64,000 nt of DNA from assembly GCA_965178125.1 (NCBI GenBank), contig OZ237735.1:868001-932000 (forward strand). Direction: 5' to 3'. The position numbers and the translations under genes are program-made. Under the pieces are notes generated by a model, which worked only from the letters and a program-made list of their open reading frames with translations, made no database searches and was not told where the DNA came from. The stretch comes from Bilabrum cf. latius (taxonomy: Eukaryota). Every line of letters starts with the position of its first letter. Within the stretch, counting starts at the first letter, position 1. Below are positions 1 to 34,900 of the stretch, piece by piece.

Positions 1-74
1 AGGCTCAAGTTTTGGCCTCACAGGCCTATCTGCTCTTCTACAGACGCGTGGACCCAAAATCGCCAAAAGATTGA
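1..74 (+). CDS. 3' end of a ubiquitin-specific protease (USP/peptidase C19), partial
   Basis: Frame from base 3 reads AQVLASQAYLLFYRRVDPKSPKD then TGA (72-74). AYLLFYxR is the typical C-terminal motif of the USP catalytic domain. Only 23 codons are visible. Confidence 0.7.
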   Translation, partial: AQVLASQAYLLFYRRVDPKSPKD

Positions 75-196
75 TGGCGGCAGGGCGTGGAGAGGTCTGG
101 TATCGCATCAATCGACAGGCAGCTCTTAGTAAAGCGGTTTCATATTTGGGCTCGGCTGCTGGTGTTCCTTCTTCCGGTTTGAGTTGATGCACGCAA

Positions 197-2350
197 ATGG
201 TATCACACGACGATTTGACTGCGACTATGGATGATAGCACCGACAGAAGCGCCAAAATAACAAAGTTCTTCAACAACTTGACTGCTTCAGTTGACGCTCA
301 GGTCGTGCAAACGCTGGAGAGAGGCAACGAACTGCAGGCAACACGGCAGATTGATTAGGGCACGGTAGTATTCACTGAAGGACCAATTGCTGCGCACCAA
401 CACCAGGCTAATTCGTGGTCTGTGTAGTGCTGTAAACTGTGCTTGGGCCCACTGGGATCCGCAGCATCGCAGGTGCGTCAGGCTTGCAGTGTAACGGGCC
501 CGGCAGACTTAATCACGTCGCTTGGGGCCATAGTTGATAAAGATGCAGCTGCTACTGGCACCTCGGATAGCGAGGAAGAAGACGAAGTATGTGGGTTCTG
601 CATTAGCGCGTAGGATGCAGAGCTTGCAGTCGAAGAGGCACAATCGGCGGTACGCTAGGCTGCAACAGAAGCTGAACATGATGCGACCGGGATTCCTGCA
701 GCTGCAAGTGGGAGCTCCGAATCTCCACCAGTTGCATTCGCTCCAATCGATCTGAAAGTAGCTGTTAGTGCGTGCACTTGGCCCTGCGTGACGTCCGACT
801 CGTCTGGTTACTGGCAATTCTGCAGCCAGAGCTGTCGCGATGAAGCCATGCGTTCGATGCTGTTCGTTTTGGACTACGATTTTATGTAGGACGTGGCAGC
901 GGGATCAGCCGCGCTAATTCTCGATTCAAGCAGTCACAGTGTGGTTTGCGGTGTTGGTGCAGGCCGGATGGGTGGGCACGAGGCAAGCACAGTAGCAGCA
1001 GCAGCAGCGGGGGGTGCCGGCGAGAGCACCGATGAACTAGTAGTCCGCGCAGACCCAGAATCTGGAAGCTCACCTTCGGTAGCAACAAGCGCAAGCGACC
1101 TCACTAAATTCGATGGATCTATGGGATCGGCTGCGCTAAGTGGGGCCCGGCTTGTCGTCGCACGGGCCGCAGTCGGGGAGGGCAGCGAGGCGGTTGCGGA
1201 GGCAGCCGATGAGCTGGATGACATGCAGCGGGAGGTGATGGAATCCGCAGGGATGGCAGCTAGATGCTACTCACACATGTTAGCACTTTTGTGCGACTCG
1301 GTTGATGCCGCCGCCGCCGCAGCAGCAGCAGCAGCAGATCTGGTCTCACCAGCGAAAGACATTTCGATCAAGAGCCAGGGCGAGCGACCCGACAGCACCG
1401 CCAGCATCGCCGAATCATCGGGTTGCGCCGGAAAATCAGGAGCAGGAGCAGCCAGCGCGCTCGCAATTGTATCAAAATGCCTACTAGAAGCAGCTGCGCC
1501 GCTGCAAGACCATCTCCACGGTACCGCTATCGAGACTGTCATGAGCTGGCAGTGGCAGACCGAGGACGCCGATGCCGCACCAGCGGCCTCGAAAAGCGCA
1601 GCCGTGCGTGATGGATTGCATGAAGAATCACCGGATACGATGCAGCTATGCGATATCCTGTCTCGAGCGTTCTTGCCGCTTTTCTTGGCCGCATTTAGGG
1701 TGCTGCCACTATCGTCAGGAGCAGATGTGCAAACGGCCACGAAGCAGCTAGTCGAGGAGCGTTTCTTTTCTCCGCCCGCGGTGTCTCGGCTGCTCGGGGT
1801 GCTTGAACTTAACGGGATCGAGGTGGCAATCGATACTCCAGGAGCACTCGTCGGCAGAATGGTTCTGACCGGGGCGGCACGAGGGGGGAAATCTTGCCGA
1901 GTTCTGCATGAAGCGCTCGAGAGGACGGATGGGGCGCGCCAGGTGCTTGGAGCAAGCGCTAGCCCCGAAGGCGAAGCGCCGAGCGGGCATTCAGGCATGG
2001 CACCCAGATCAGTACCACCAGTCCGTGGCGTTGCTCTGTACTCTCTCGTCTCCCTGATGAATCATTCGTGCGAGCCTTGCGCAGTGGTGGATTACCCGCA
2101 CGGCAACTTCACGGCTGAGGTGAGGGCCACACGAAGTATCCGCCCCGGGTCACCGATCACGATCGCCTATGACTCAGCTGAAGGGGGTTGTTCTGCCAGA
2201 AGAAGGGCATTGCTTAGGTACGGGTTTGTGTGCCAGTGCAGTGCCTGCCTCAGGGAAGAAGCAGGGCCGGGTGCCGACAGCGATCTGACAGCTCGTGTGA
2301 GTCGCACAGCAGGGAATGGGCCGGCCACGGCAAGCTCGGGAGGAATGTAA
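197..2350 (+). CDS. SMYD-family lysine methyltransferase (split SET domain, MYND-type zinc finger, Cys-rich post-SET), 717 aa with TAG read as sense
   Basis: First ATG after in-frame TGA (185) is at 197. N-SET-like RGNELQATRQID*GTVVFTEGPIAA, zinc-finger halves CCKLC and FCSQSCR, SET motif LYSLVSLMNHSCEP...ATRSIRPGSPITIAY, post-SET YGFVCQCSAC. In-frame TAG at 356, 425, 611, 656, 887; ends TAA 2348-2350. The supplied 893..2350 ORF is only the part after the last TAG. Confidence 0.88.
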
Positions 2351-2594
2351 CCCAACGCAGCAACCTTTTTGCTGCTTGAACCAATGCAGTGCTTGGATTC
2401 TAATCCAATGTTTGCGCATTTAAAATCAAATCCGATCATGGCACACAACAATCTAAGGAAGGTAGTACTCGCCAAGTACTTTGAGCTAGATCTACCCCAC
2501 CCCGGGCAGCTGCTTGCACGCAGTCCATCCTATTCAGCATCTTTGTGTCATCAAGACAGCTAGGGGTGCCCGCCCTGCCACAACCTTCTTTCAG

Positions 2595-4262
2595 TTATTG
2601 AGACAGCGTGGCCGTGAGAAACTCGATTTCCTCTGCGGTATCTGCGTTGCTGTACGGGAAGAGGGCAGTCGCACCTGGGTGTCGCTGTCGAAATCGTCTC
2701 CGCACACTACCCGCGGCCAGCACCCTGGACCTACTTGAGGCTGCCTAGGAGACTGTCTGCTGCAGACCTCCACTGGCGGCCGAAATCGATCGTTTGAGCT
2801 TGACGATCGCATCTCGCGCCGACGTGGCAGGTTCCGTCGGAGACCCGGATGTGGCGCGCAGGCGTTGGGCCACCAACCCAGCGGCCACTACATCGGGGAG
2901 CACACCGCTCGCGGCCAGATCCACAAGCTCGTCGATGGTAGCGCTGCTGAAGGCTGCAGCTCCAGCTGCGGCCTAACGACTGCCGATCGCTTTACGATTC
3001 AGATGCTAGTGCCCATTGCTGCTTGGCCGTCTTCTCTGCTGCTCCATGGCGATCGATGCAGGGACAGGGCCAGCTAGGGTTGTTCGAAACGCACGATTGC
3101 TCCGTCGAGACGCACGCGTACTCCATACTGGAAATCTCGATCTAACGGCTGCAGAGGCCCCGCCGTTACTGGGCTGCGAGTGGTGGGAGGCGCGGCTCGT
3201 CTCAGCTGGCAGCGGCAGCGGGGGGAGCATGTGGTCAAACCGCGAATGGCTGCCACTAGGACACGTGAATGCGGCGTGATCGACATCCTAGGAACCCTTG
3301 CGCGATCGTGCCCGGGTCGACAACTCCTCTGCATCGCCCTCTGCCTCCCCACCACCACTCCTAGCCTCGCTGCGACTCACATCGAGATCGAGCAGCAGCG
3401 AGCGGCTGGGCGGTCTGCCCGATGACACCCCAGGCAGTGGCTTTGCCCAGCAGTTACCCGTAGAATTTGGCGAATACATACTCATGGGGCTCTTGGAGTC
3501 GCTGTGGACATGCTGGACTTCGCTTGGCGATTGCGCTGTCGCTCGCGATAGGCCAAGGCTAGCATCAAACCCGCTGGAAAGGTCGGTATTCAAGCTCGAT
3601 CCCGGCAGAGGCCGCCTTATTTCTAGTCGAGCGACGAGTGGTTGTACCGGTACGTGCGGCACCTTCCGACGACCTAACCCTATTTTTTCGGAATGGGATA
3701 GGTCAGCTGTCGAGGATCTGTCGTCGCCCGCTTGATCAACAACACTTGATCCGTCCGGCATGACCTTCCGCTTTGGCCATCTACGGTACGTAACAGGGCC
3801 CTTCGAATACCCTAAGACAGGCTTTCGTCGCAACTCAGGTGTGAATGCCCTCACGCTTGGGCGCAGGAGCCTAACCGCTGGGCTCTAATCCAATGGGCTT
3901 GGTCCATGCATTGGTGGCAAAATCCCAACGGGGGAAGCATCGGATCCTATGCCGATTTTCCGAATTGGAGACGTCCTCACCAGAAAGTGATCAGATCTCA
4001 GCGGTGGTGGATGTCCGAAGGCGCTCGAGGTCGTGTAGATAGGACCAGGAGATGAAGAGCCTCTCGAGTGCAAGTTGGCGTGGTCCTTGCTAATGAAACG
4101 GTCTGCAGCATAGAGTTTAGATACTTGGAGCGCGAAAGGGCTGACACCTAAGGCGGAATCTGGAAAGGGAGTAGTCTAGAGACCAGAGAGACTCACTCGG
4201 TTGATCAGAGTCGAAACGCTGCCCGCTGGGAGAAAACCGCACGGATCGGGCCGGCTGTCCAT
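2595..4262 (-). CDS. hypothetical Ser/Arg/Pro-rich, probably disordered protein, 555 aa with TAG read as sense
   Basis: ORF pieces 4176..4448, 3885..4073, 3288..3854 and 3006..3230 share one frame and are separated only by TAG (4176, 3885, 3288, 3006, then 2973, 2745). The frame closes at TAA 2595-2597 (...EEIEFLTATLSQ). Start taken as ATG at 4262 (MDSRPDPCG), next to an A-rich tract. No recognisable domain. Confidence 0.65.
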
Positions 4263-4730
4263 GCATGTTGACAGAAAACTTGGTATAAGTTCGTGATAGG
4301 CTTCTTGATTGGGAGCAAAACGAAATACAAAAAAAAGAGGTTGATTTGGCACGCAACAATTGAGACAAAACGAGCCAGGAGCTACACGCCTTCTTGTAGT
4401 CAGGCGCTGGCTACATTTTGGCAAGACAATGATGGCAACATTTGACACCGAGGAATAGCCTGCTAGGACAATTGTAGTGCAATCTCGCTCGGCTGTGCCA
4501 TGGTATTGGCCACGTCACGGCCCTCCCACACAAGGTCCCCTGCGGCCGCTGGCTTTATTGCTTGAACCCGAAGCCGTGATCTTCACAATAAGAGAGCAGC
4601 GATTCGCCCGCCTCTTCCATAAGGCTGCCCCCTCGCCGATTAGCTGCAAACCGCTATACTAGCACTCGTGTGGCAGAGGCACATATTCCTCCATCTGCGC
4701 ACTGGCAGCTCAGTCTAGACTGACGACCCC

Positions 4731-5582
4731 TCAAGATTGCAGTCCTCGCTATGCAGTGATACAGTGCACATCTATCCAGGGAATCCGTGATTCCTCCGAG
4801 GCAATCCCCAGTTCGCGCACCGCTGCCTCTGTTGACTCTGCGTCGGCAGTCGAGGGGAGTCGCAGGGACGGAGAGCAGCTGCTCAGGCATCGGGCAGCAT
4901 GCAAAGGCGAAATGCCGGCGTCGAATGCTCGCTATCGAAATTTTCGGTGCATCATGGGAGAAAATCCGCGTTTCGCCAGGCCGTTCCCGAGGCTCCCGTA
5001 GAGGGCATCCAAAAACTTGGTGGGCTCCAGCGCGAGCTCCGAGTCTCCTGTATCGCTGTCCAGCTGGGGGTGAATTGCCCCGACAGAAAATGAATCTGAG
5101 TCAGGTGGGAGCCTTGCCTGCAGCAGGCAAACGCTGCCCACTTCCTAATCCACTGCACCAGCTAAAGTCTCTGTGAGCATGTCGCTATAGTGCGCAGGTT
5201 GTAGCAACCTGAACGCCTGGGACACCACAGCAACATGATAGGGCTACCCGGTAGTTGATTCCCGCAAGTCTCGCAATAGCTGCTCTGCGGAGCATGAAAG
5301 CGTATCACCCACTGACGTGCATTCCACCGAATCACCAATTTCTCGCTTGATTGCCCAATGTAGCGTTCCTGATCCGGGTCCTACTGTGATTACACGCGGA
5401 AGCCCCCCTTGGGAAACTATCCCATTGTTTTGTCCTGGAAGCAGGGCAAACCTACGCAGCATAGCTCGAACCGGGCTTGCCCCCCATTCGATCTGAACAG
5501 TAGTCGAGGTGCTCGTCGATTTCGATCTGATTAGCCGCCGCGTCACGGATTGACAAGAATGTGATCTAAAACGGCCAATCAT
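4731..5582 (-). CDS. class I SAM-dependent methyltransferase-like protein, 283 aa with TAG read as sense; possible mitochondrial presequence
   Basis: ORFs 5244..5582 and 4932..5141 are in frame. TAG at 5244, 5145, 4932, 4749; ends TGA 4731-4733. Motif I-like VITVGPGSGTL, then SAE, then YHVAVVSQAFRLL (like FDLVxVAQAFHW) just after the first TAG, then GSVCLL. N-terminus is Arg/Ser/Thr-rich and lacks acidic residues. Confidence 0.6.
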
Positions 5583-5775
5583 GAGCTGAAATGAGACGTG
5601 ATCACTGCAGGTGGTCGCCTAAGGGAATAACTTTGCTGCGGCAGAATGTAGGGTGATGTTATCGGTATCGTTTTAGCTCCGGATTTTCTGTACCCAACTG
5701 TTCCAAAATGTTTGCAACGGCAATACTATCCATCTGTGAAGGTCGTGTCAATTATTTCTTTGCCAAGCAGTCGAC
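5583..5775. promoter_or_regulatory. short divergent intergenic region, probable bidirectional promoter
   Basis: 193 bp between the head-to-head ATGs at 5582 (-) and 5776 (+), more AT-rich than the flanking CDS. No specific element identified. Confidence 0.35.
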
Positions 5776-7788
5776 ATGGATGATAATGGGACGAATATGA
5801 GAGAAATTGAGCTGGAAGAATAGCCGTCTAGCTCGATTCGGTCAGATGCAAAGTCAGCTTCGGGCAATGTCGCACAAGCCGGTGAATCAATTGCAAGCAA
5901 ATCCGAGTCTGAAAAAGGTGCGTCGATTGATTCAGCTGGAGCCCCGAGGGCTTAGGGATCGGGAGTTTACGATGAAGAAGGCCGCGAGCTGATAGTAGAA
6001 GAGAGCAGTTCACCTGATGACCTCGAATAGGAAGACCTGCCAGAAACTTTGCGCGGAGAACCTGAGTGCGCATGTGGCGTGAAGTATGCCACGAAAGGGT
6101 ATCACTTAATGTTCTATCCGTTCGTCCACTACGTGAACGACTATCCGCAGCTGATCAAGGAGTGCCTTGCCGGGCTCTCTGTCGCCTTTGCGCAACTCAG
6201 CGATTCGATCGCTTTCTCTTTCATTGCTGGGGTGCCACCTGAGCAGGGCCTTCATGCTGCGTGGATCATTGGCTTAACAATGGGACTGCTGGGGTCGCGG
6301 CCAGGCATGATCAACGGGGCGACGGGCGTGCGAGCAGCGGTCATCGCACCGTATGTGGAGCAATACGGGGTCAGCTTTCTCTTCTACATCGTGGTGGCTA
6401 TCTCGATTTTCCAGTTTCTAGCTTCGTTCTTATCGCTGGCAAGGCTGGTCCGAATGGTGCCTCGTACCGTCATGGTCGGCTTCGTGTGCGGGCTTGCCAT
6501 CATCCTGGCGCTGGGGCAGCAGCTCGCGTTCAAGTACCCCGGGGAGGACAGGTGGAGGGACACGACGACCAGCCTCTGGATGCTGTTCGTGGCGACTTGT
6601 ACAGTTCTTGCTGCGGTGTTCGTGCCGATGATTCCGTATGCAGGCAAGGTCTTCCCGCCCTCCATGTGGGGAATTATCGCTGCCGTGGTGGTCGAGTTCG
6701 GCATAGTGCGCACGAGCGGGTACAGCACGCCCGCCATCGGAGATGTCGCGGACGCAGGCGGCAGCCTGCCAACTTTGTTCTTCCTGGACGATCGTTACGA
6801 CATCCCTCCCCTCAACTGGGAAGCCGTGCAGCAAGCAATCGTGCCTGCCTTTCTGGCTGCAGCCGCCGGAATGGTCGAAGCTGTCATGACCATGGAAGTG
6901 GTAAACGATCTAACGGAGACGGACAACCCGTATCCGGACCAGCAGCTGCTGTCACTTGGTATCGGCAACTTCCTGGCCGGGATGCTGGGAACAATGGGCG
7001 GGGGTGCAACCATCGGTCCCAGCATCATCAACTGCACCAACGGTGCCAATGGGCAGTACCGCCTGTCAGCCATTGTAGCTGCCGTGTTCATGCTCGTGAT
7101 CATCCTGGCGGCGAGCCCGCTCATTTCTGTGATTCCCACGGCGTCTTTGGTCGGCATTATGGCGGTGGTCTGCTTCCACACGTTCGAGTGGAGCGCGATT
7201 CCGGTGGTATTCTTCTCTCTCCTGCCGCAATCGTGGCGGGAGCACGAGTGGCTCGGAGGTCACGGGGTCAGGAAGATCAACAGGATGGAAGCAGTCGTCA
7301 TCATTGTCGTGACGGCGGTAACCGTCATCGCAGATCTATTCACCGCGGTGGCCGTAGGGGTTGCACTCACGGCTTGCGAGTACGCCTGGAGGGAAGGAGC
7401 CAGCCTCGCGGTTACCTCCAGGAAGGTCAGGGACGCCGATGGCAAGGTAGTCAGAGTGTACAGGCTGAATGGCCCGCTCTTCTTTGCATCAGCTATGGGG
7501 TTCATCAAGAAATTCGATCCGAAGCGGGACCCGGACGAAGTAGAGGTGCACTTTTAGGAGTCGCAGCTGCACGACTACTCTGGCATGCACGCGTTGAACG
7601 TGATCGGGGAGAAGTACAGGAAAGAAAAAAAGCACGTTCGCGTCCGTCACCTGTGCATACAGAGTGAGAGAAGGCTGCGAAAGGCCGATGCACTCGCGGA
7701 ATTTTTTTCGTACAAGCCCGAAGGAGTTGCTGAGGAGCTGTAGGACCCGGACCATCTCAACAGGGAGTCGACTAGCGTTCTTGTGTAA
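5776..7788 (+). CDS. SulP/SLC26 family anion transporter with C-terminal STAS domain, 670 aa with TAG read as sense
   Basis: ATG 5776, acidic N-terminal extension with TAG at 5821, 5953, 6028. SulP motifs LAGLSVAFAQL, AFSFIAGVPPEQGL, GSRPGMINGATG, VMVGFVCGLAI, QQLLSLGIGN...MGGGATIGPSIIN. STAS YRLNGPLFFASA...EVEVHF*ESQLHDYSGMHALNVIGEKY runs straight through TAG 7555; a further TAG at 7741; ends TAA 7786-7788. Confidence 0.93.
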
Positions 7789-7868
7789 GGTTGGTAAGAT
7801 TGCTAGGAGTGACTATTTATATTAATCGGTGTGTTACTTTATGAAAAGATATGTGTTAATGAATTCAA

Positions 7869-7888
7869 TGCATGCATGCATGCATGCA
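7869..7888. repeat. (TGCA)5 palindromic microsatellite in the convergent 3' intergenic region
   Basis: tgcatgcatgcatgcatgca read directly; lies in the AT-rich 187 bp between the SulP stop (7788) and the giant-gene stop (7976). Confidence 0.85.
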
Positions 7889-7975
7889 AAAATTGCAGTG
7901 CATTGCCTTGTGCCCACTTCTGCCTGGAACAAGGCCAAGCCGCACTCCTTAGTGAAGCACCCGTCTACTTGCTCT

Positions 7976-10900
7976 TTAGGTGTGTGCAGCGCCCTCAATC
8001 GCAATGACTTTCCACTGGTAGTCGCTGTTGACTTCAACGGTCCCTCCCAGAGCCATCGCTTGAACGTAAACATCACCATTGGCCAACGCGTGGGTCTAGC
8101 CAAACACGATGCCACCACCACTCGAATCGTACCGAGCTGAGGTTGCGGCTGCCGGGGCTTCCGCTAGCGTGAGCAGAATGATGGTAGCATCAGATGTCGT
8201 GAACGAAGTGCCATCCCACGAGATCGTGAGGCCGATCATCGCCATCTCGCCGTCTCGCACCTCCACCGTCGCGTCCGGGATTGCATCCCCTGTGGCGTAC
8301 TTGGTGACACCATAGTACGATGTGCCCACCTTGTGGAGTGAAACCATTTTACTCCCTCCAACGACCAGGTCGATGTGCCCACCGCTGGCTTCCACAGAGA
8401 CATCGTCTCCCTCGACGGAGACATCTCCAGTTGTGGTGATTTGAACACCACCTGATCCGCTTGTTATGTAGTGCGCCCCCGTCCCAGAGATACTGCTTCT
8501 AATATCCCCGCTTGCCTGTATGCTCACATCCCCGCCTGCTGCCTGCACGAGCACGTCGTTGTTGCTCCCAGTCGACTTGAGCACCGCGTGGCCGCCAGTG
8601 GCCAGGGCACTGACCGTTCCGCTGGTCGACTCGAGCAGAACATCGCTAGCTCTCAGTACGAGCTCCGTATCAGCCACGACGCTAACGCTTCCAAAAGAAG
8701 CGCGAGCTATCACCGACCCAGCTGCGCTCTAGATCAGCGCATCATCCGTTGCAAGCAATCTGAGGTCGTCAGTCGACCGGATCGTAGCAGTCGTCTCAGC
8801 TTTGATATCGACAGTGCCGCCCGTAGACACCATGTTTAAGCCGCCCGGTGATTCAAGGTGCATTCGGTTGGTCCCGCCGGCAGCAACAATGCTGACATGA
8901 CCCGCGGCAGCCTACAAGTCGATATCACCTCCTGAAGCTGCCAACCGCAAATCATCAGATGCTGCAAGCGCGATCTTACTGCTCGCCACTATCGACGTAT
9001 CACCAGCCGACTGAAGAACTATCCTCTTGGATGCACCAGGTGCCGAAAGCTCTACGTTCCCTTCAGACGATTGCACAGTCATGTCTCCCTCCGAGTCGAG
9101 ACTCATCTCTAGAGAAGTGCCCACGCTGGAATCAACTGCCCGAAGAGCGATGCCAGAGACAGGGTCGACGTCAAGAGCAACAGATCCGTCCCCTTGCGAG
9201 ATTTCAACGGATCCTGCAGAGGCCGAGCTAGCGGCCGAAGCGCCTTGTATACGAACAGTTCCACCCGAATTCCCTGCACCATTTCCAGAGCCGCCAATTA
9301 GACTGACGGAACCCCCGTTCCCAGACGAAGCTGCCGGACTGGACCGAAGAAGTAGGCCGGACCCACCACCACTAGATACCGTGACCGACGAACCCGACTG
9401 CAGAGAAACGATACCTGCAGATTCTACCGCAAACGTTGACGTAGTATCAACTGTAACCGCGCCAGACGCATCGATGTCCAGCGCGTCGCTCACCATACTC
9501 ACCATGCCGTCCGACACAAGGAACATGTCCTTGTTGTTGTCCGTCAGCAGGCTCATGTCTCCACTGGTGGCCTTCAGCGCCATGCCACTGGCGCCCACCA
9601 TGGCCACGGTGCTGTCCCCATCCAGCGTCACCTCGCCAGACGCATCGATGTCCAGCGCGTCGCTCACCATACTCACCATGCCGTCCGACACAAGGAACAT
9701 GTCCTTGTTATTGCCCGTCAGCAGGCTCATGTCTCCACTGGTGGCCTTCAGCGCCATGCCACTGGCGCCCACCATGGCCACGGTGCTGCCCCCATCCAGC
9801 GTCACCTCGCCAGACGCATCGATGTCCAGCGCCGCCGAGCTCAGGTCCATTTCGCCCGTGCTGGTCACGGCCACAGTGCTGTCCCCATCCAGCGTCACCT
9901 CGCCAGACGCATCGATGTCCAGCGCGTCGCTCACCATACTCACCATGCCGTCCGACACAAGGAACATGTCCTTGTTGTTGTCCGTCAGCAGGCTCATGTC
10001 TCCACTGGTGGCCTTCAGCGCCATGCCACTGGCGCCCACCATGGCCACAGTGCTGCCCCCATCCAGCGTCACCGTGCCAGACGCCTTTTGGTATAGACCA
10101 CTTGATGACATGATGGAGATTGATCCGGCAGCAGTACCGGTCCCAGTTGATAGAATTATGGCTCCTGATGCGGTAGTTCCACTTCCCGTCTGAATGTTTA
10201 TGTTCCCGCTGGCCCCGCTGCTTGCAGTTCCGGTTGCAAGTGAGACTGAGCCAGTTGGGCCTAGTGTGGACGCACCCGTTGACACTGAGACCGCACCTGA
10301 CGTAGCCGCCGGTCCAAGTGCCTGATGCGTCAAAATTGCGATTCCACCGCTTGTTCCAGTACTCCCAGATCTACCGCTGATGACCTAAACAGCCCCACCA
10401 TTTACTGCGGATGCCGTAGCAGCTCCAGCGTTAATCTCGATATTGGCGCCTACACCAGCTCCTGATGTGCCTGCAGCTAAAAGAACCTTGCCTGCTGCAC
10501 CCCCAGTCGTCGATCCAGTCATCAATGTGACCTGTCCAGACGTGCCCGACCCTGCAAGCCCGCTGCCCACTGTCACGCTCCCGCTCAGACCTGCCGTGGA
10601 CTTGCCAGTTACAACCGACACCGTGCCCGACGCTCCGTCAGACCCCACGCCATCCGCCGACCGCACCGTCACCAGCCCGCTCGTGGCCTCGCTGGCGCCC
10701 ACGCCAGATGCCACGGACACCAGCCCGCCCGTGCTGGACGTGTCCGTCGACTCACCGCCGAACACGTACACCGACCCGCCCACGCCCGATGACGCCTTCG
10801 AAGACGTCACTGACACAGACCCAGACGCGCCCAGCGAGGACTCGCCGGCCGACAGCACCAGCCATCCCACAGACCCGGACCCCACGTTCCCGGACTCCAC

Positions 10901-22900: not shown

Positions 22901-25900
22901 CCCGCCCACGCCCGATGACGCCTTCGAAGACGTCACTGACACAGACCCAGACGCGCCCAGCGAGGACTCGCCGGCCGACAGCACCAGCCATCCCACAGAC
23001 CCGGACCCCACGTTCCCGGACTCCACCAACACATGACCGCTGCTGCCCACGTGCGCCGCGCCGCTACGCAGCACCAGCCCGCCCGACGGGCCGCCGGAGC
23101 TCACGCCCGATCCCACCGTCACCGACCCAGACCCGGAGCTTGACGCAGACCCGGACTCCAGACTCACAGACCCAGACGACCCCTTCACGCCAGACCCAGA
23201 CCCCACTGACACTGACCCAGACGTGCCCGACCCTGCAAGCCCGCTGCCCACTGTCACGCTCCCGCTCAGACCCGCCGTGGACTTGCCAGATACCACCGAC
23301 ACCGTGCCCGACGCTCCGTCAGACCCCACGCCATCCGCCGACCGCACCGTCACCAGCCCGCTCGTGGCCTCGCTGGCGCCCGCGCCAGATGCCACGGACA
23401 CCAGCCCGCCCGTGCTGGACGTGTCCGTCGACTCACCGCCGAACACGTACACCGACCCGCCCACGCCCGATGACGCCTTCGAAGACGTCACTGACACAGA
23501 CCCAGACGCGCCCAGCGAGGACTCGCCGGCCGACAGCACCAGCCATCCCACAGACCCGGACCCCACGTTCCCGGACTCCACCAACACATGACCGCTGCTG
23601 CCCACGTGCGCCGCGCCGCTACGCAGCACCAGCCCGCCCGACGGGCCGCCGGAGCTCACGCCCGATCCCACCGTCACCGACCCAGACCCGGAGCTTGACG
23701 CAGACCCGGACTCCAGACTCACAGACCCAGACGACCCCTTCACGCCAGACCCAGACCCCACTGACACTGACCCGGACTCGCCCACAGTCGCAGACCCAGA
23801 CCCCACTGACACTGACCCAGACGTGCCCGAACCTGCAAGCCCGCTGCCCACTGTCACGCTCCCGCTCAGACCCGCCGTGGACTTGCCAGATACCACCGAC
23901 ACCGTGCCCGACGCTCCGTCAGACCCCACGCCATCCGCCGACCGCACCGTCACCAGCCCGCTCGTGGCCTCGCTGGCGCCCACGCCAGATGCCACGGACA
24001 CCAGCCCGCCCGTGCTGGACGTGTCCGTCGACTCACCGCCGAACACGTACACCGACCCGCCCACGCCCGATGACGCCTTCGAAGACGTCACTGACACAGA
24101 TCCAGACGCGCCCAGCAAGGACTCGCCGGCCGACAGCACCAGCCATCCCACAGACCCGGACCCCACGTTCCCGGACTCCACCAACACATGACCGCTGCTG
24201 CCCACGTGCGCCGCGCCGCTACGCAGCACCAGCCCGCCCGACGGGCCGCCGGAGCTCACGCCCGATCCCACCGTCACCGACCCAGACCCGGAGCTTGACG
24301 CAGACCCGGACTCCAGACTCACAGACCCAGACGACCCCTTCACGCCAGACCCAGATGACACAGACACTGACCCAGACGTGCCCGACCCTGCAAGCCCGCT
24401 GCCCACTGTCACGCTTCCGCTCAGACCCGCCGTGGACTTGCCAGATACCACCGACACCGTGCCCGACGCTCCGTCAGACCCCACGCCATCCGCCGACCGC
24501 ACCGTCACCAGCCCGCTCGTGGCCTCGCTGGCGCCCACGCCAGATGCCACGGACACCAGCCCGCCCGTGCTGGACGTGTCCGTCGACTCACCGCCGAACA
24601 CGTACACCGACCCGCCCACGCCCGATGACGCCTTCGAAGACGTCACTGACACAGACCCAGACGCGCCCAGCGAGGACTCGCCGGCCGACAGCACCAGCCA
24701 TCCCACAGACCCGGACCCCACGTTCCCGGACTCCACCAACACATGACCGCTGCTGCCCACGTGCGCCGCGCCGCTACGCAGCACCAGCCCGCCCGACGGG
24801 CCGCCGGAGCTCACGCCCGATCCCACCGTCACCGACCCAGACCCGGAGCTTGACGCAGACCCGGACTCCAGACTCACAGACCCAGACGACCCCTTCACGC
24901 CAGACCCAGACCCCACTGACACTGACCCGGACTCGCCCACAGTCGCAGACCCAGACCCCACTGACACTGACCCAGACGTGCCCGACCCTGCAAGCCCGCT
25001 GCCCACTGTCACGCTCCCGCTCAGACCCGCCGTGGACTTGCCAGATACAACCGACACCGTGCCCGACGCTCCGTCAGACCCCACGCCATCCGCCGACCGC
25101 ACCGTCACCAGCCCGCTCGTGGCCTCGCTGGCGCCCACGCCAGATGCCACGGACACCAGCCCGCCCGTGCTGGACGTGTCCGTCGACTCACCGCCGAACA
25201 CGTACACCGACCCGCCCACGCCCGATGACGCCTTCGAAGACGTCACTGACACAGACCCAGACGCGCCCAGCGAGGACTCGCCGGCCGACAGCACCAGCCA
25301 TCCCACAGACCCGGACCCCACGTTCCCGGACTCCACCAACACATGACCGCTGCTGCCCACGTGCGCCGCGCCGCTACGCAGCACCAGCCCGCCCGACGGG
25401 CCGCCGGAGCTCACGCCCGATCCCACCGTCACCGACCCAGACCCGGAGCTTGACGCAGACCCGGACTCCAGACTCACAGACCCAGACGACCCCTTCACGC
25501 CAGACCCAGACCCCACTGACACTGACCCAGACGTGCCCGACCCTGCAAGCCCGCTGCCCACTGTCACGCTCCCGCTCAGACCCGCCGTGGACTTGCCAGA
25601 TACAACCGACACCGTGCCCGACGCTCCGGCAGACCCCACGCCATCCGCCGACCGCACCGTCACCAGCCCGCTCGTGGCCACGCTGGCGCCCACGCCAGAT
25701 GCCACGGACACCAGCCCGCCCGTGCTGGACGTGTCCGCCGACTCACCGCCGAACACGTACACCGACCCGCCCACGCCCGATGACGCCTTCGAAGACGTCA
25801 CTGACACAGACCCAGACGCGCCCAGCGAGGACTCGCCGGCCGACAGCACCAGCCATCCCACAGACCCGGACCCCACGTTCCCGGACTCCACCAACACATG

Positions 25901-28900
25901 ACCGCTGCTGCCCACGTGCGCCGCGCCGCTACGCAGCACCAGCCCGCCCGACGGGCCGCCGGAGCTCACGCCCGATCCCACCGTCACCGACCCAGACCCG
26001 GAGCTTGACGCAGACCCGGACTCCAGACTCACAGACCCAGACGACCCCTTCACGCCAGACCCAGATGACACTGACACTGACCCAGACGTGCCCGACCCTG
26101 CAAGCCCGCTGCCCACTGTCACGCTCCCGCTCAGACCCGCCGTGGACTTGCCAGATACCACCGACACCGTGCCCGACGCTCCGTCAGACCCCACGCCATC
26201 CGCCGACCGCACCGTCACCAGCCCGCTCGTGGCCACGCTGGCGCCCACGCCAGATGCCACGGACACCAGCCCGCCCGTGCTGGACGTGTCCGCCGACTCA
26301 CCGCCGAACACGTACACCGATCCGCCCACGCCCGATGACGCCTTCGAAGACGTCACTGACACAGACCCAGACGCGCCCAGCGAGGACTCGCCGGCCGACA
26401 GCACCAGCCATCCCACAGACCCGGACCCCACGTTCCCGGACTCCACCAACACATGACCGCTGCTGCCCACGTGCGCCGCGCCGCTACGCAGCACCAGCCC
26501 GCCCGACGGGCCGCCGGAGCTCACGCCCGATCCCACCGTCACCGACCCAGACCCGGAGCTTGACGCAGACCCGGACTCCAGACTCACAGACCCAGACGAC
26601 CCCTTCACGCCAGACCCAGACCCCACTGACACTGACCCAGACGTGCCCGACCCTGCAAGCCCGCTGCCCACTGTCACGCTCCCGCTCAGACCCGCCGTGG
26701 ACTTGCCAGATACAACCGACACCGTGCCCGACGCTCCGTCAGACCCCACGCCATCCGCCGACCGCACCGTCACCAGCCCGCTCGTGGCCTCGCTGGCGCC
26801 CACGCCAGATGCCACGGACACCAGCCCGCCCGTGCTCGACGTGTCCGTCGACTCACCGCCGAACACGTACACCGACCCGCCCACGCCCGATGACGCCTTC
26901 GAAGACGTCACTGACACAGACCCAGACGCGCCCAGCGAGGACTCGCCGGCCGACAGCACCAGCCATCCCACAGACCCGGACCCCACGTTCCCGGACTCCA
27001 CCAACACATGACCGCTGCTGCCCACGTGCGCCGCGCCGCTACGCAGCACCAGCCCGCCCGACGGGCCGCCGGAGCTCACGCCCGATCCCACCGTCACCGA
27101 CCCAGACCCGGAGCTTGACGCAGACCCGGACTCCAGACTCACAGACCCAGACGACCCCTTCACGCCAGACCCAGACCCCACTGACACTGACCCGGACTCG
27201 CCCACCGTCGCAGACCCAGACCCCACTGACACTGACCCAGACGTGCCCGACCCTGCAAGCCCGCTGCCCACTGTCACGCTCCCGCTCAGACCCGCCGTGG
27301 ACTTGCCAGATACCACCGACACCGTGCCCGACGCTCCGTCAGACCCCACGCCATCCGCCGACCGCACCGTCACCAGCCCGCTCGTGGCCACGCTGGCGCC
27401 CACGCCAGATGCCACGGACACCAGCCCGCCCGTGCTCGACGTGTCCGTCGACTCACCGCCGAACACGTACACCGACCCGCCCACGCCCGATGACGCCTTC
27501 GAAGACGTCACTGACACAGACCCAGACGCGCCCAGCGAGGACTCGCCGGCCGACAGCACCAGCCATCCCACAGACCCGGACCCCACGTTCCCGGACTCCA
27601 CCAACACATGACCGCTGCTGCCCACGTGCGCCGCGCCGCTACGCAGCACCAGCCCGCCCGACGGGCCGCCGGAGCTCACGCCCGATCCCACCGTCACCGA
27701 CCCAGACCCGGAGCTTGACGCAGACCCGGACTCCAGACTCACAGACCCAGACGACCCCTTCACGCCAGACCCAGACCCCACTGACACTGACCCAGACGTG
27801 CCCGACCCTGCAAGCCCGCTGCCCACTGTCACGCTCCCGCTCAGACCTGCCGTGGACTTGCCAGTTACCACCGACACCGTGCCCGACGCTCCGGCAGACC
27901 CCACGCCATCCGCCGACCGCACCGTCACCAGCCCGCTCGTGGCCTCGCTGGCGCCCACGCCAGATGCCACGGACACCAGCCCGCCCGTGCTGGACGTGTC
28001 CGTCGACTCACCGCCGAACACGTACACCGACCCGCCCACGCCCGATGACGCCTTCGAAGACGTCACTGACACAGACCCAGACGCGCCCAGCGAGGACTCG
28101 CCGGCCGACAGCACCAGCCATCCTACAGACCCGGACCCCACGTTCCCGGACTCCACCAACACATGACCGCTGCTGCCCACGTGCGCCGCGCCGCTACGCA
28201 GCACCAGCCCGCCCGACGGGCCGCCGGAGCTCACGCCCGATCCCACCGTCACCGACCCAGACCCGGAGCTTGACGCAGACCCGGACTCCAGACTCACAGA
28301 CCCAGACGACCCCTTCACGCCAGACCCAGACCCCACTGACACTGACCCAGACGTGCCCGACCCTGCAAGCCCGCTGCCCACTGTCACGCTCCCGCTCAGA
28401 CCCGCCGTGGACTTGCCAGATACAACCGACACCGTGCCCGACGCTCCGTCAGACCCCACGCCATCCGCCGACCGCACCGTCACCAGCCCGCTCGTGGCCT
28501 CGCTGGCGCCCACGCCAGATGCCACGGACACCAGCCCGCCCGTGCTGGACGTGTCCGTCGACTCACCGCCGAACACGTACACCGACCCGCCCACGCCCGA
28601 TGACGCCTTCGAAGACGTCACTGACACAGACCCAGACGCGCCCAGCGAGGACTCGCCGGCCGACAGCACCAGCCATCCCACAGACCCGGACCCCACGTTC
28701 CCGGACTCCACCAACACATGACCGCTGCTGCCCACGTGCGCCGCGCCGCTACGCAGCACCAGCCCGCCCGACGGGCCGCCGGAGCTCACGCCCGATCCCA
28801 CCGTCACCGACCCAGACCCGGAGCTTGACGCAGACCCGGACTCCAGACTCACAGACCCAGACGACCCCTTCACGCCAGACCCAGACCCCACTGACACTGA

Positions 28901-31900
28901 CCCAGACGTGCCCGACCCTGCAAGCCCGCTGCCCACTGTCACGCTCCCGCTCAGACCCGCCGTGGACTTGCCAGATACCACCGACACCGTGCCCGACGCT
29001 CCGGCAGACCCCACGCCATCCGCCGACCGCACCGTCACCAGCCCGCTCGTGGCCTCGCTGGCGCCCACGCCAGATGCCACGGACACCAGCCCGCCCGTGC
29101 TGGACGTGTCCGTCGACTCACCGCCGAACACGTACACCGACCCGCCCACGCCCGATGACGCCTTCGAAGACGTCACTGACACAGACCCAGACGCGCCCAG
29201 CGAGGACTCGCCGGCCGACAGCACCAGCCATCCCACAGACCCGGACCCCACGTTCCCGGACTCCACCAACACATGACCGCTGCTGCCCACGTGCGCCGCG
29301 CCGCTACGCAGCACCAGCCCGCCCGACGGGCCGCCGGAGCTCACGCCCGATCCCACCGTCACCGACCCAGACCCGGAGCTTGACGCAGACCCGGACTCCA
29401 GACTCACAGACCCAGACGACCCCTTCACGCCAGACCCAGATGACACTGACACTGACCCAGACGTGCCCGACGTCGCAGACCCAGACCCCACTGACACTGA
29501 CCCAGACGTGCCCGACCCTGCAAGCCCGCTGCCCACTGTCACGCTCCCGCTCAGACCCGCCGTGGACTTGCCAGATACCACCGACACCGTGCCCGACGCT
29601 CCGGCAGACCCCACGCCATCCGCCGACCGCACCGTCACCAGCCCGCTCGTGGCCTCGCTGGCGCCCACGCCAGATGCCACGGACACCAGCCCGCCCGTGC
29701 TGGACGTGTCCGTCGACTCACCGCCGAACACGTACACCGACCCGCCCACGCCCGATGACGCCTTCGAAGACGTCACTGACACAGACCCAGACGCGCCCAG
29801 CGAGGACTCGCCGGCCGACAGCACCAGCCATCCCACAGACCCGGACCCCACGTTCCCGGACTCCACCAACACATGACCGCTGCTGCCCACGTGCGCCGCG
29901 CCGCTACGCAGCACCAGCCCGCCCGACGGGCCGCCGGAGCTCACGCCCGATCCCACCGTCACCGACCCAGACCCGGAGCTTGACGCAGACCCGGACTCCA
30001 GACTCACAGACCCAGACGACCCCTTCACGCCAGACCCAGACCCCACTGACACTGACCCAGACGTGCCCGACCCTGCAAGCCCGCTGCCCACTGTCACGCT
30101 CCCGCTCAGACCCGCCGTGGACTTGCCAGATACCACCGACACCGTGCCCGACGCTCCGTCAGACCCCACGCCATCCGCCGACCGCACCGTCACCAGCCCG
30201 CTCGTGGCCTCGCTGGCGCCCACGCCAGATGCCACGGACACCAGCCCGCCCGTGCTGGACGTGTCCGTCGACTCACCGCCGAACACGTACACCGACCCGC
30301 CCACGCCCGATGACGCCTTCGAAGACGTCACTGACACAGACCCAGACGCGCCCAGCGAGGACTCGCCGGCCGACAGCACCAGCCATCCCACAGACCCGGA
30401 CCCCACGTTCCCGGACTCCACCAACACATGACCGCTGCTGCCCACGTGCGCCGCGCCGCTACGCAGCACCAGCCCGCCCGACGGGCCGCCGGAGCTCACG
30501 CCCGATCCCACCGTCACCGACCCAGACCCGGAGCTTGACGCAGACCCGGACTCCAGACTCACAGACCCAGACGACCCCTTCACGCCAGACCCAGACCCCA
30601 CTGACACTGACCCGGACTCGCCCACCGTCGCAGACCCAGACCCCACTGACACTGACCCAGACGTGCCCGACCCTGCAAGCCCGCTGCCCACTGTCACGCT
30701 CCCGCTCAGACCCGCCGTGGACTTGCCAGATACCACCGACACCGTGCCCGACGCTCCGGCAGACCCCACGCCATCCGCCGACCGCACCGTCACCAGCCCG
30801 CTCGTGGCCTCGCTGGCGCCCACGCCAGATGCCACGGACACCAGCCCGCCCGTGCTGGACGTGTCCGTCGACTCACCGCCGAACACGTACACCGACCCGC
30901 CCACGCCCGATGACGCCTTCGAAGACGTCACTGACACAGACCCAGACGCGCCCAGCGAGGACTCGCCGGCCGACAGCACCAGCCATCCCACAGACCCGGA
31001 CCCCACGTTCCCGGACTCCACCAACACATGACCGCTGCTGCCCACGTGCGCCGCGCCGCTACGCAGCACCAGCCCGCCCGACGGGCCGCCGGAGCTCACG
31101 CCCGATCCCACCGTCACCGACCCAGACCCGGAGCTTGACGCAGACCCGGACTCCAGACTCACAGACCCAGACGACCCCTTCACGCCAGACCCAGACCCCA
31201 CTGACACTGACCCAGACGTGCCCGACCCTGCAAGCCCGCTGCCCACTGTCACGCTCCCGCTCAGACCCGCCGTGGACTTGCCAGATACCACCGACACCGT
31301 GCCCGACGCTCCGGCAGACCCCACGCCATCCGCCGACCGCACCGTCACCAGCCCGCTCGTGGCCTCGCTGGCGCCCACGCCAGATGCCACGGACACCAGC
31401 CCGCCCGTGCTGGACGTGTCCGTCGACTCACCGCCGAACACGTACACCGACCCGCCCACGCCCGATGACGCCTTCGAAGACGTCACTGACACAGACCCAG
31501 ACGCGCCCAGCGAGGACTCGCCGGCCGACAGCACCAGCCATCCCACAGACCCGGACCCCACGTTCCCGGACTCCACCAACACATGACCGCTGCTGCCCAC
31601 GTGCGCCGCGCCGCTACGCAGCACCAGCCCGCCCGACGGGCCGCCGGAGCTCACGCCCGATCCCACCGTCACCGACCCAGACCCGGAGCTTGACGTAGGC
31701 CCGGATTGTAGTCGTACTTCGCCAGATGCCTGTTGTATTAGATCACTTGATGACATGATGGAGACTGATCCGGCAGCAGCGCCAGTCCCAGTTGATAGAA
31801 TTATGGCTCCCGATGAAGTAGTCCCACTTCCAGTCTGAATGTTTATATTCCCGCTGGCCCCGCTGCTCGCAGTTCCGGTTGCAAGTGAGACCGAACCAGT

Positions 31901-34900
31901 TGGGCCTAGTGTGGACGCACCCGTTGACACTGAGACCGCACCTGACGTAGCCGCCGGTCCAAGTGCCTGATGCGTCAAAATTGCGATTCCTCCGCTTGTT
32001 CCAGTACTCTCGGATCTACCGCTGATGACCTAAACAGCCCCACCATTTGCTGCGGATGCCGTAGCAGCTCCAGCGTTTATCTCGATATTGGCGCCAACCC
32101 CAGTTCCGGATGTGCCTGCAGCTAAAAGAACCTTGCCTGCTGCACCCCCAGTAGTAGATCCAGTGCCCAACGTGAGCTGTCCAGACGACCCTGCGGTAGC
32201 ATCTCCGGTTTCGATCGCAATAGCCCCTGACGATCTCGAAATACCCGACTGGATGTTGACAACCCCAGAGGATGTGCTTCCACCAGCCGTCTAGAGCTGA
32301 AGTTCACCACCGGAACCAGATGATGATGAACCAGATACAACCGAAACAATTCCACCACTGCCAGAGTTGGTGCCACCAGAGGCAATAGACACAGCTGCAG
32401 CCGCACCATCTATTGATGAGCCGGCAACCAGACTGACATCACCAGCACTACCGCTAGTTCCGGTTCCTGAGGCAATCGCAACATCGCCAGACCCACCTAC
32501 GGCCCCACCCATGCCTGACGATATTTGAATACTGCCGGAGTCACCTCCATTCACAGAGTTTCCACTTCCGGAAAGCAGTGATACATGCCCACCAGTCGGT
32601 TGAGCAGAGGCATCTGATCCACCAACTCCCGCAGAGAGAACAATGGAGCCCCCAGCTCCTGCGACACCATTATTGCTTGCACCTGCCCCACCATAGATGA
32701 GAACAGCGCCACCAGATCCAGTTCCACCAACGCCAGCATCAACCAAAACGTTGCCGCCGCTTCCAACAACAGATGAACCAATAACAAGCGAAATATCGCC
32801 TGCTTGGGACGACCCCACGGAAGAGCCGACCTACGCAACCAAATCACCAGTACCGGCTCCTTGACCTGATCGCAGATACAAACTACCCGACGCTGCGGAT
32901 GAAAGCCCACTAGAAAAATACACATCACCAGAATCACCAGATACTGCTGACCCACTGCCAACACTGACTTCTCCGGATGAACCACCAGCCAAACCAGATC
33001 TAAGCCAAATAGAACCAGACAAAGACCTTGATCCTGCCCCTGTCGTCAAACTCAAAGCTCCAGATACCCCGCTAGACGTCGACCCAGACCCCACTGACAC
33101 TGACCCAGACGTGCCCGACCCTACAAGCCCGCTGCCCACTGTCACGCTCCCGCTCAGACCCGCCGTGGACTTGCCAGATACCACCGACACCGTGCCCGAC
33201 GCTCCGTCAGACCCCACGCCATCCGCCGACCGCACCGTCACCAGCCCGCTCGTGGCCTCGCTGGCGCCCACGCCAGATGCCACGGACACCAGCCCGCCCG
33301 TGCTGGACGTGTCCGTCGACTCACCGCCGAACACGTACACCGACCCGCCCACGCCCGATGACGCCTTCGAAGACGTCACTGACACAGACCCAGACGCGCC
33401 CAGCGAGGACTCGCCGGCCGACAGCACCAGCCATCCCACAGACCCGGACCCCACGTTCCCGGACTCCACCAACACATGACCGCTGCTGCCCAAAACGCTA
33501 GACCCGGTGCCCATACGCAGCGACCCAGTCGACCCGGACCAAGCCGACCCAGTCAGCAGTGATCCTGACCCACTGCTGCCCACGTGCGCCGCGCCGCTAC
33601 GCAGCACCAGCCCGCCCGACGGGCCGCCGGAGCTCACGCCCGATCCCACCGTCACCGACCCAGACCCGGAGCTTGACGCAGACCCGGACTCCAGACTCAC
33701 AGACCCAGACGATCCCTTCACGCCAGACCCAGATGACACAGACACTGACCCGGACTCGCCCACCGTCGCAGACCCAGACCCCACTGACACTGACCCAGAC
33801 GTGCCCGACCCTGCAAGCCCGCTGCCCACTGTCACGCTCCCGCTCAGACCCGCCGTGGACTTGCCAGATACCACCGACACCGTGCCCGACGCTCCGGCAG
33901 ACCCCACGCCATCCGCCGACCGCACCGTCACCAGCCCGCTCGTGGCCTCGCTGGCGCCCACGCCAGATGCCACGGACACCAGCCCGCCCGTGCTGGACGT
34001 GTCCGTCGACTCACCGCCGAACACGTACACCGACCCGCCCACGCCCGATGACGCCTTCGAAGACGTCACTGACACAGACCCAGACGCGCCCAGCGAGGAC
34101 TCGCCGGCCGACAGCACCAGCCATCCCACAGACCCGGACCCCACGTTCCCGGACTCCACCAACACATGACCGCTGCTGCCCACATGCGCCGCGCCGCTAC
34201 GCAGCACCAGCCCGCCCGACGGGCCGCCGGAGCTCACGCCCGATCCCACCGTCACCGACCCAGACCCGGAGCTTGACGCAGACCCGGACTCCAGACTCAC
34301 AGACCCAGACGACCCCTTCACGCCAGACCCAGATGACACAGACACAGACCCGGACTCGCCTACCGTCGCAGACCCAGACCCCACTGACACTGACCCAGAC
34401 GTGCCCGACCCTGCAAGCCCGCTGCCCACTGTCACGCTCCCGCTCAGACCCGCCGTGGACTTGCCAGATACCACCGACACCGTGCCCGACGCTCCGGCAG
34501 ACCCCACGCCATCCGCCGACCGCACCGTCACCAGCCCGCTCGTGGCCTCGCTGGCGCCCACGCCAGATGCCACGGACACCAGCCCGCCCGTGCTGGACGT
34601 GTCCGTCGACTCACCGCCAAACACGTACACCGACCCGCCCACGCCCGATGACGCCTTCGAAGACGTCACTGACACAGACCCAGACGTGCCCAGCGAGGAC
34701 TCGCCGGCCGACAGCACCAGCCATCCCACAGACCCGGACCCCACGTTCCCGGACTCCACCAACACATGACCGCTGCTGCCCACGTGCGCCGCGCCGCTAC
34801 GCAGCACCAGCCCGCCCGACGGGCCGCCGGAGCTCACGCCCGATCCCACCGTCACCGACCCAGACCCGGAGCTTGACGCAGACCCGGACTCCAGACTCAC

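Follow-up and report, generated by a model that had tools for sequence, protein, structure and literature searches.

Probable reassignment of UAG alone from stop to sense, most likely for glutamine, in the nuclear DNA of a compact-genome microbial eukaryote

The 64,000-nt stretch analysed here (contig OZ237735.1 of assembly GCA_965178125.1, positions 868,001 to 932,000 of the forward strand; hereafter the window, with positions counted from its first letter) carries five genes whose reading frames are crossed by TAG and by neither TAA nor TGA. We conclude that it is very probably nuclear DNA of a compact, intron-poor and GC-rich microbial eukaryote that has turned UAG from a stop into an ordinary sense codon, most probably for glutamine (Gln), and that retains UAA and UGA as terminators. 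Our confidence that TAG is a translated sense codon is high. An earlier note on this DNA had proposed precisely such a code, with TAG as sense and TAA and TGA as stops, and the proposal is borne out by the frame statistics, by letters that are unchanged across sequencing runs and transcript-like contigs, by the occurrence of TAG at other positions in relatives, by exchanges between TAG and CAG, and by TAA or TGA at a shared C-terminus. That the reassignment is genome-wide is an extrapolation from six genes here and about five in relatives.

TAG in the reading frames of the window

The first 8 kb of the window combine a GC content of 55-58% with a very high gene density, while the other 56 kb have ~70% GC and a strong strand skew. 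Read with the standard or the bacterial code, the first 8 kb yield only fragments as open reading frames (ORFs); once TAG is taken as sense, the same region resolves into four contiguous genes and a fifth, giant one represented by its 3′ end. The long ORFs obtained in this way (197-2350 on the forward strand, 2595-4448 and 4731-5582 on the reverse strand, 5776-7788 on the forward strand and 7976-64000 on the reverse strand) contain 5, 6, 4, 5 and 7 TAGs, respectively, which reproduces the per-ORF counts behind the 27 in-frame TAGs of the earlier note. One of them, at 4176-4178 in gene 2, sits in a 94-nt intron, so the total is 26 in-frame TAGs in five genes on both strands. As a spliced contig shows, the gene 2 frame had been misread upstream of this intron; once spliced, the gene starts with the ATG at 4266 and holds five in-frame TAGs. 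The features of the window are as follows (X5 is a sequencing run, L002 a related locus and P0097, P0098 and P0099 are protein fragments of a relative, all taken up below).

3..74, forward strand: C-terminal end of an upstream gene, last 23 codons (...AYLLFYRRVDPKSPKD), stop TGA at 72-74, read from the translation and the bases; presumably a USP-type hydrolase C-terminus
197..2350, forward strand: SET-domain protein gene, 717 codons, stop TAA at 2348-2350; Pfam SET, E=9e-8
356, 425, 611, 656 and 887, forward strand: in-frame TAGs of the SET gene
2595..4266, reverse strand: gene 2, no known family, 525 codons, exons 4266-4197 and 4102-2595, stop TAA at 2595-2597; from the spliced X5 contig and the L002 orthologue
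3885, 3288, 3006, 2973 and 2745, reverse strand: in-frame TAGs of gene 2
4103..4196, reverse strand: spliceosomal intron of gene 2, 94 nt, GTGAGT...CAG; joint 4102^4197 in the X5 contig
4731..5582, reverse strand: gene 3, no Pfam family, 283 codons, stop TGA at 4731-4733; fragments of relatives P0097, P0098 and P0099
5244, 5145, 4932 and 4749, reverse strand: in-frame TAGs of gene 3
5776..7788, forward strand: SulP/SLC26 anion transporter gene with a STAS-like C-terminus, 670 codons, stop TAA at 7786-7788; Pfam Sulfate_transp, 1.9e-28
5821, 5953, 6028, 7555 and 7741, forward strand: in-frame TAGs of the SulP gene
7976..64000, reverse strand: gene of a giant G/S-rich repeat protein, >18,674 codons, 5′ end outside the window, stop TAA at 7976-7978; C-terminal part with DUF2345
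8096, 8729, 8912, 10385, 32030, 32291 and 32831, reverse strand: in-frame TAGs of the giant gene, all outside the repeat arrays

Within the four small genes (2,195 codons), TAG occurs in frame 19 times, TAA and TGA not at all, whereas the other two frames of the same genes hold 11.6 TAG, 5.0 TAA and 18.0 TGA per 1000. The in-frame frequency of TAG (8.7 per 1000 codons) is thus about equal to its out-of-frame frequency, and the out-of-frame rates predict ~50.5 occurrences of TAA plus TGA where none is observed (crude Poisson P(0) of 1e-22). Because the in-frame and out-of-frame rates of TAG are so close, and because TAA and TGA number 0 against ~50 expected, TAG is evidently not avoided in frame, whereas TAA and TGA are excluded from it. 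In the 18,674 codons of the giant ORF there are 7 further TAGs and again neither TAA nor TGA, so that the absence of internal TAA and TGA claimed from the letters alone extends over 2,195 + 18,674 codons, and no internal TAA speaks against it.

The length of the giant ORF is weak evidence when taken alone, since the composition-skewed arrays leave antisense frames open too, here over 7,016 and 10,324 aa. Its product is rich in Gly, Ser and Val and consists of near-identical tandem units in one open frame of >18,674 codons, with repeat lags of 555/1155 nt at ~10.4-31.9 kb and of 600 nt (91% self-identity) at ~33-64 kb, and with DUF2345, a beta-helical domain (3e-14), in its non-repetitive C-terminal part. 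All seven TAGs of the gene lie in non-array parts. One TAG-bearing segment (...NGGAV-TAG-VISGRS...) is duplicated, at aa 10656 and aa 17871, which shows retention of the codon, not its meaning, and the internal repeats of the protein are too degenerate to indicate the residue at TAG.

The base that follows TAG is G in 16 cases, C in 5, A in 4 and T in 1, G being mildly above its share of 41% at codon position 1 (p=0.045), and the codons flanking the 26 TAGs share no motif. The view that the following bases vary without a fixed motif thereby stands, with its tally of five A corrected to four. Less of what had been said about protein domains survives. Pfam backs the identities of the SET and SulP proteins, and finds neither a MYND nor a methyltransferase match among the window proteins, which leaves the label 'MYND' without support and removes the label 'methyltransferase' from gene 3. 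TAGs had been placed inside recognisable domains: TAG-594 does fall within the STAS match of SulP, itself sub-threshold (19.9 bits against a cut-off of 22.6), and the SET domain (residues 619-658 of the SET protein) contains no TAG.

Two further kinds of decoding were considered and rejected. Table 6 and the ambiguous all-stop codes (tables 27/28 and the Blastocrithidia type) do not fit 0 in-frame TAA/TGA against ~50 expected. Where UAG is decoded as pyrrolysine, it is limited to a handful of genes (methylamine methyltransferases) of archaea or bacteria that have pyl genes, whereas TAG is found here in each of the five unrelated genes, in DNA of eukaryotic type that includes a spliceosomal intron.

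Related sequences and the amino acid encoded by TAG

A metagenome scan with SulP led to four loci, L001 to L004; scans of genome-contig and viral-contig collections with the same protein found no relative. L001 and L002 represent one organism (99.85% mutual identity, ~54% GC) with the same gene order as the window, to which they are 81% identical in SulP, 46% in gene 3 and 41% in SET. Their orthologues also require TAG as sense (two TAGs in SulP, five in gene 3 and three in SET), at positions that mostly differ from those of the window, and the frames stay open. Synonymous sites are saturated between these loci and the window (pS 0.80-0.85), whereas pN rises from 0.136 in SulP through 0.37 in gene 3 and 0.45 in SET to 0.57 in gene 2. 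With a pN of 0.136 against a pS of 0.85, the comparison indicates that strong purifying selection acts on SulP across its TAGs.

A second, much closer relative is known only as predicted protein fragments of one 5,161-nt contig. Its SulP fragment shares 99% identity with the SulP of the window and ends exactly before TAG-594, its gene 3 fragments (85% and 93% identity) end directly before TAG-113 and TAG-217, and its giant-protein fragment (77% identity) ends directly before TAG-1635 of P0005. Public protein sets likewise hold the genes of this lineage only as pieces between successive TAGs (P0006, P0061-63, P0097-P0100 and P0102), since standard gene callers, taking TAG as a stop, begin each piece behind one TAG and close it ahead of the next.

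L003 and L004 are more distant, with SulP identities of 57% and 61%, and both SulP genes end in TGA. TAG is missing from their 556 and 544 exon codons, against ~4.8 expected at the window rate; thin as these data are, they suggest that these Cafeteria-like relatives use the standard code. The C-terminal architecture of a SET-like gene in L004 is different, which makes it uninformative on TAG as a stop in the outgroup. Sense TAG is thus common to at least two relatives, one a near-identical strain or species and the other with ~81% SulP identity, and is apparently absent from the Cafeteria-like ones.

The meaning of TAG was read from 26 aligned positions at which TAG faces a sense codon, 25 from orthologue alignments (after seven duplicate L001 rows were dropped) and one from a gene 3 fragment. 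The partners of TAG are Q and E (five each), K, S, R and G (two each), and D, H, T, I, V, M, P and A (one each). In the six contexts with at least 10/12 flanking identities, the partners are Q four times, K and D. A BLOSUM62-based likelihood places Gln first at all four context thresholds. Moreover, at SulP column Q125, where ≥90% of 21 homologues have Q, the window has CAG and L001/L002 have TAG, and one gene 3 fragment of the closer relative, the 93%-identical one, has Q at window TAG-146. On the strength of these alignments we are fairly confident that TAG means Gln; the conserved contexts, Q125 and the likelihood make it the best-supported meaning, and the code would then be equivalent to translation table 15, as had been anticipated for that case.

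Several observations weigh against this assignment. The sample of aligned positions is small, and only one TAG (SulP Q125) stands on a deeply conserved column, TAG-594 (in the STAS match) and TAG-656 (just past it) of the window SulP being located in variable columns of the 21-sequence alignment. CAG, GAG and AAG are each one mutation away from TAG, so the pair counts are confounded by mutational proximity. Finally, over all pairs glutamate (Glu) faces TAG no less often than Gln does (5 versus 5).

Glu is accordingly the most likely candidate, ahead of lysine or arginine, if TAG encodes an amino acid other than Gln, which we consider unlikely. Reassignment to Glu has precedents in the UAG of some ciliates and the UAR codons of Blastocrithidia, and, besides its 5/26 share of partners, Glu is only 2.0 log units behind Gln when all 26 pairs are used. 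It falls behind by 2.2 (n=17), 4.7 (n=10) and 3.5 (n=6) log units at the other thresholds, with Arg second at n=10 (4.0 log units behind Gln). In addition, no E is found among the best contexts, where the partners are four Q, one K and one D, and both the Q125 column and the residue at gene 3 position 146 favour Gln. A leucine or serine meaning finds 0 L and 2 S among the 26 partners.

Gene ends and transcript-like contigs

The six gene ends of the window consist of four TAA (2348, 2595, 7786 and 7976) and two TGA (72-74 and 4731), exactly as first claimed. The C-termini of SulP coincide in position, ...NRESTSVLV being followed by TAA in the window and ...NRESASVLV by TGA in L002, and transcript-like contigs (see below) end 14 nt past the SET TAA and 41 nt past the SulP TAA. 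TAG is needed as a terminator at 0/6 window ends and at 0/4 checked L001/L002 ends, a count that covers few genes and is partly circular, the ORFs having been delimited by TAA/TGA. We think it likely that TAG never acts as a terminator. Apart from this circularity, a TAG near a gene end could terminate, for example codon 278 of gene 3, five codons before the TGA, and both points weigh against the claim.

The same two points would favour a dual, position-dependent UAG, which is sense within genes and a terminator near mRNA 3′ ends, as in the ambiguous codes of the Condylostoma type: with gene ends set by the first TAA or TGA, a terminating TAG further upstream would escape notice. Such a dual meaning seems improbable to us. 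SulP TAG-656 lies 14 codons before the end and is followed by residues conserved with L002 (10/12 flanking identities), which argues against position-dependent termination, and the six window ends and four checked L001/L002 ends have TAA or TGA where the orthologue ends or nearly ends.

The stretch is present in nine sequencing runs of five studies, none of which is recorded as RNA, and four runs of four studies (X1, X5, X6 and X7) were aligned over positions 150-8000. Over this interval, their contigs show no differing letter and no indel relative to the window, and the TAGs of the four small genes are covered unchanged in 19/19 cases in X1, 18/19 in X5, 13/19 in X6 and 13/19 in X7; neither CAG nor any other letter stands at a TAG site. 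X1 consists of two long collinear pieces at even depth and looks DNA-like. X5 contributes contigs at 183-1298 and 1345-2364, at 2415-4102 joined to 4197-4245, at 4340-5602, at 5737-7731 and from 7833 onwards, and X6 contigs at 4478-5584 and 5737-7829. The contigs of X5 and X6 break in intergenic gaps, their depth shifts from gene to gene, and one is spliced at GT..AG; because of the splice joint, the gene-wise breaks and the depth changes between genes, they are probably assembled transcripts. Together, they retain 19/19 small-gene TAGs and, one intron aside, match the DNA collinearly. Two considerations weigh against relying on them: the RNA status guessed by program is only 'RNA?', and 'probably DNA' for X5, and contigs drop rare variants, so rare edited letters could be hidden.

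These contigs bear directly on the possibility that the TAGs are untranslated, because they belong to pseudogenes, are sequencing errors, are edited to CAG in RNA or are removed by splicing. One of the 27 TAGs originally counted is indeed removed with an intron, and in the transcript-like contigs this intronic gene 2 TAG is the only one spliced out and none is edited. Since 19/19 TAGs are kept in X5/X6 and the runs of four studies carry no other letter, sequencing error, editing and splicing are unsupported. The 0 TAA/TGA against ~50 expected, the purifying selection on SulP and the shifting TAG positions in frames that remain open between relatives also oppose this explanation, which we judge highly improbable.

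Runs X1, X5, X6 and X7, which contain the sequence of 150-8000 at ≥99% identity, are filed under four different organism labels in four studies, and the organism behind them may be a co-cultured or contaminating flagellate and not the labelled subject of each run.

Gene packing over 150-8000 is extremely tight in the transcript-like contigs. The untranscribed gaps measure ~50 nt (2365-2414), 94 nt (4246-4339) and 134 nt (5603-5736), the smallest being 3 nt (7830-7832), between the end of the X6 SulP contig at 7829 and the start of an X5 contig at 7833, and untranslated regions (UTRs) are as short as ~14 nt. The SulP contigs of both X5 and X6 begin at exactly 5737. The 3′ UTR of gene 3 (4340-4730, reverse strand) is apparently unusually long (391 nt in X5 and at least 253 nt in X6, with 14-180 nt in its neighbours), and neither an ORF nor an RNA family was found within 4340-4730. 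The SulP gene has one intron in L003 (gene at 2140-3967), two in L004 (gene at 4004-6255) and none in the window or L001/L002, which suggests that the TAG-recoded clade lost introns and compacted its genome.

Some smaller observations concern the same region. Words of ~20 nt at 989-1010, 3208-3225 and 4049-4067 recur in unrelated contigs of the same runs, as loose ends in all four, and possibly represent a small repeat of dispersed type. The contigs of all runs are interrupted at 1299-1344, where a low-complexity GCN tract codes for poly-Ala in the SET protein. Rfam gave no match in the window or in L001-L004. A homologue search with the SET protein found no match and was probably swamped by low-complexity words, and an exhaustive HMMER search with gene 3 returned 5 hits only, all of them short fragments of close relatives, with no wider family.

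Placement of the host and relation to other UAG codes

The nearest named homologue of the window SulP is that of Cafeteria roenbergensis (54% identity), followed by choanoflagellates (45-48%). In a quick maximum-likelihood tree of SulP, Cafeteria, L004 and P0035 form a group with full support, and the window and L002 together branch as its sister (SH-aLRT 92). This one-gene hint from sequence would make the host a bicosoecid-like stramenopile. A virus or phage using code 15 (TAG = Gln), which in recent literature, as far as the parts consulted go, is almost wholly a phage phenomenon, is a negligible alternative to cellular nuclear DNA, since a phage or prokaryote is excluded by the spliceosomal GT..AG intron, by eukaryote-type genes (SET, and a SulP nearest to Cafeteria and choanoflagellates) and by a separate transcript-like contig for each gene, to which a single gene of >56 kb and the lack of any relative in the viral collection can be added.

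Mechanistically, reassignment of UAG alone would involve a tRNA that carries the anticodon CUA and reads UAG but not UAA, tRNA-Gln(CUG) being its probable ancestor, together with an eRF1 whose N-terminal domain (the region of the GTS, NIKS and YxCxxxF motifs) would no longer recognize UAG efficiently. The eRF1 of Iotanema has the change T32G near GTS. Both tRNA-Gln(CUA) and changes in the eRF1 N-domain are discussed for UAG-only codes in the consulted part of PMC5304391. Tempering a nuclear UAG reassignment, tRNA scans of the window and L001-L004 found no tRNA gene, and the evidence as a whole comes from one giant gene and the ~8 kb that hold the ordinary genes.

Reassignment of UAG alone to Gln in nuclear genomes is described, in the portions of the sources consulted, for Iotanema spirale (Fornicata), Protocruzia tuzeti and two phyllopharyngean ciliate lineages (PMC5304391, PMC11687900). 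On that reading, the window resembles these lineages in having UAG as sense, probably Gln, UAA and UGA as terminators, and frequent in-frame UAG without a fixed context. Unlike them, it is multi-gene chromosomal DNA of 55-70% GC with a SulP that falls next to Cafeteria-like sequences, and is neither made of ciliate nanochromosomes nor fornicate-like. The same sources, again in part, give UAG-only reassignment to Leu in the rhizarian exLh and some phyllopharyngeans, and to Ser in Scotinosphaera (PMC11687900, PMC5304391). These codes share with the window the decoupling of UAG from UAA and the use of UAA and UGA as stops, whereas the 0/26 Leu and 2/26 Ser pairs of the window leave Gln as the best fit. 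In table 6, used by ciliates, diplomonads and ulvophytes, UAG is likewise Gln, together with UAA, which in the window is never in frame and ends 4/6 genes. The crAss-like and Lak phages, as far as the consulted part of PMC9523058 describes them, use code 15 with TAG = Gln; this codon table is the same, but those are bacteriophages and the window is eukaryotic nuclear DNA with a spliceosomal intron.

We found no report of nuclear UAG reassignment, or of any other nuclear code change, in a stramenopile or bicosoecid in the full-text literature, subscription journals and supplementary files being outside the scope of the search, and the part consulted of a Halocafeteria genome preprint gives 46.8% GC and does not mention the genetic code. 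We therefore raise, tentatively and at somewhat less than even odds, the possibility that this is the first nuclear code change in a stramenopile, located in a Cafeteria-related (bicosoecid-like) clade of heterotrophic flagellates with compact genomes, in which UAG alone would have been reassigned to Gln while the sister Cafeteria clade kept the standard code. In that equally tentative case, at least three members of the clade would have been sequenced, at two levels of divergence, and the reassignment would be young and phylogenetically bracketed, in an organism that is perhaps an overlooked co-cultured flagellate with genes that are regularly miscalled on account of its code.

Nuclear codes that split UAG from UAA are rare, and each independent origin tests ideas on how stop codons are captured, in particular the combination of a tRNA(CUA) derived from tRNA-Gln(CUG) with a weaker grip of eRF1 on UAG. 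In practical terms, standard gene callers cut the genes of this lineage at every TAG; SulP, gene 3 and the giant protein exist in public protein collections only as fragments, and annotation, metagenome binning and homology searches for the lineage will be systematically wrong until the code is set correctly. As the trait is seen at two levels of divergence and the nearest Cafeteria-like sequences apparently lack it, a tree could bracket the transition, and if a stramenopile clade does carry it, the order in which tRNA(CUA) was gained and eRF1 changed could be worked out.

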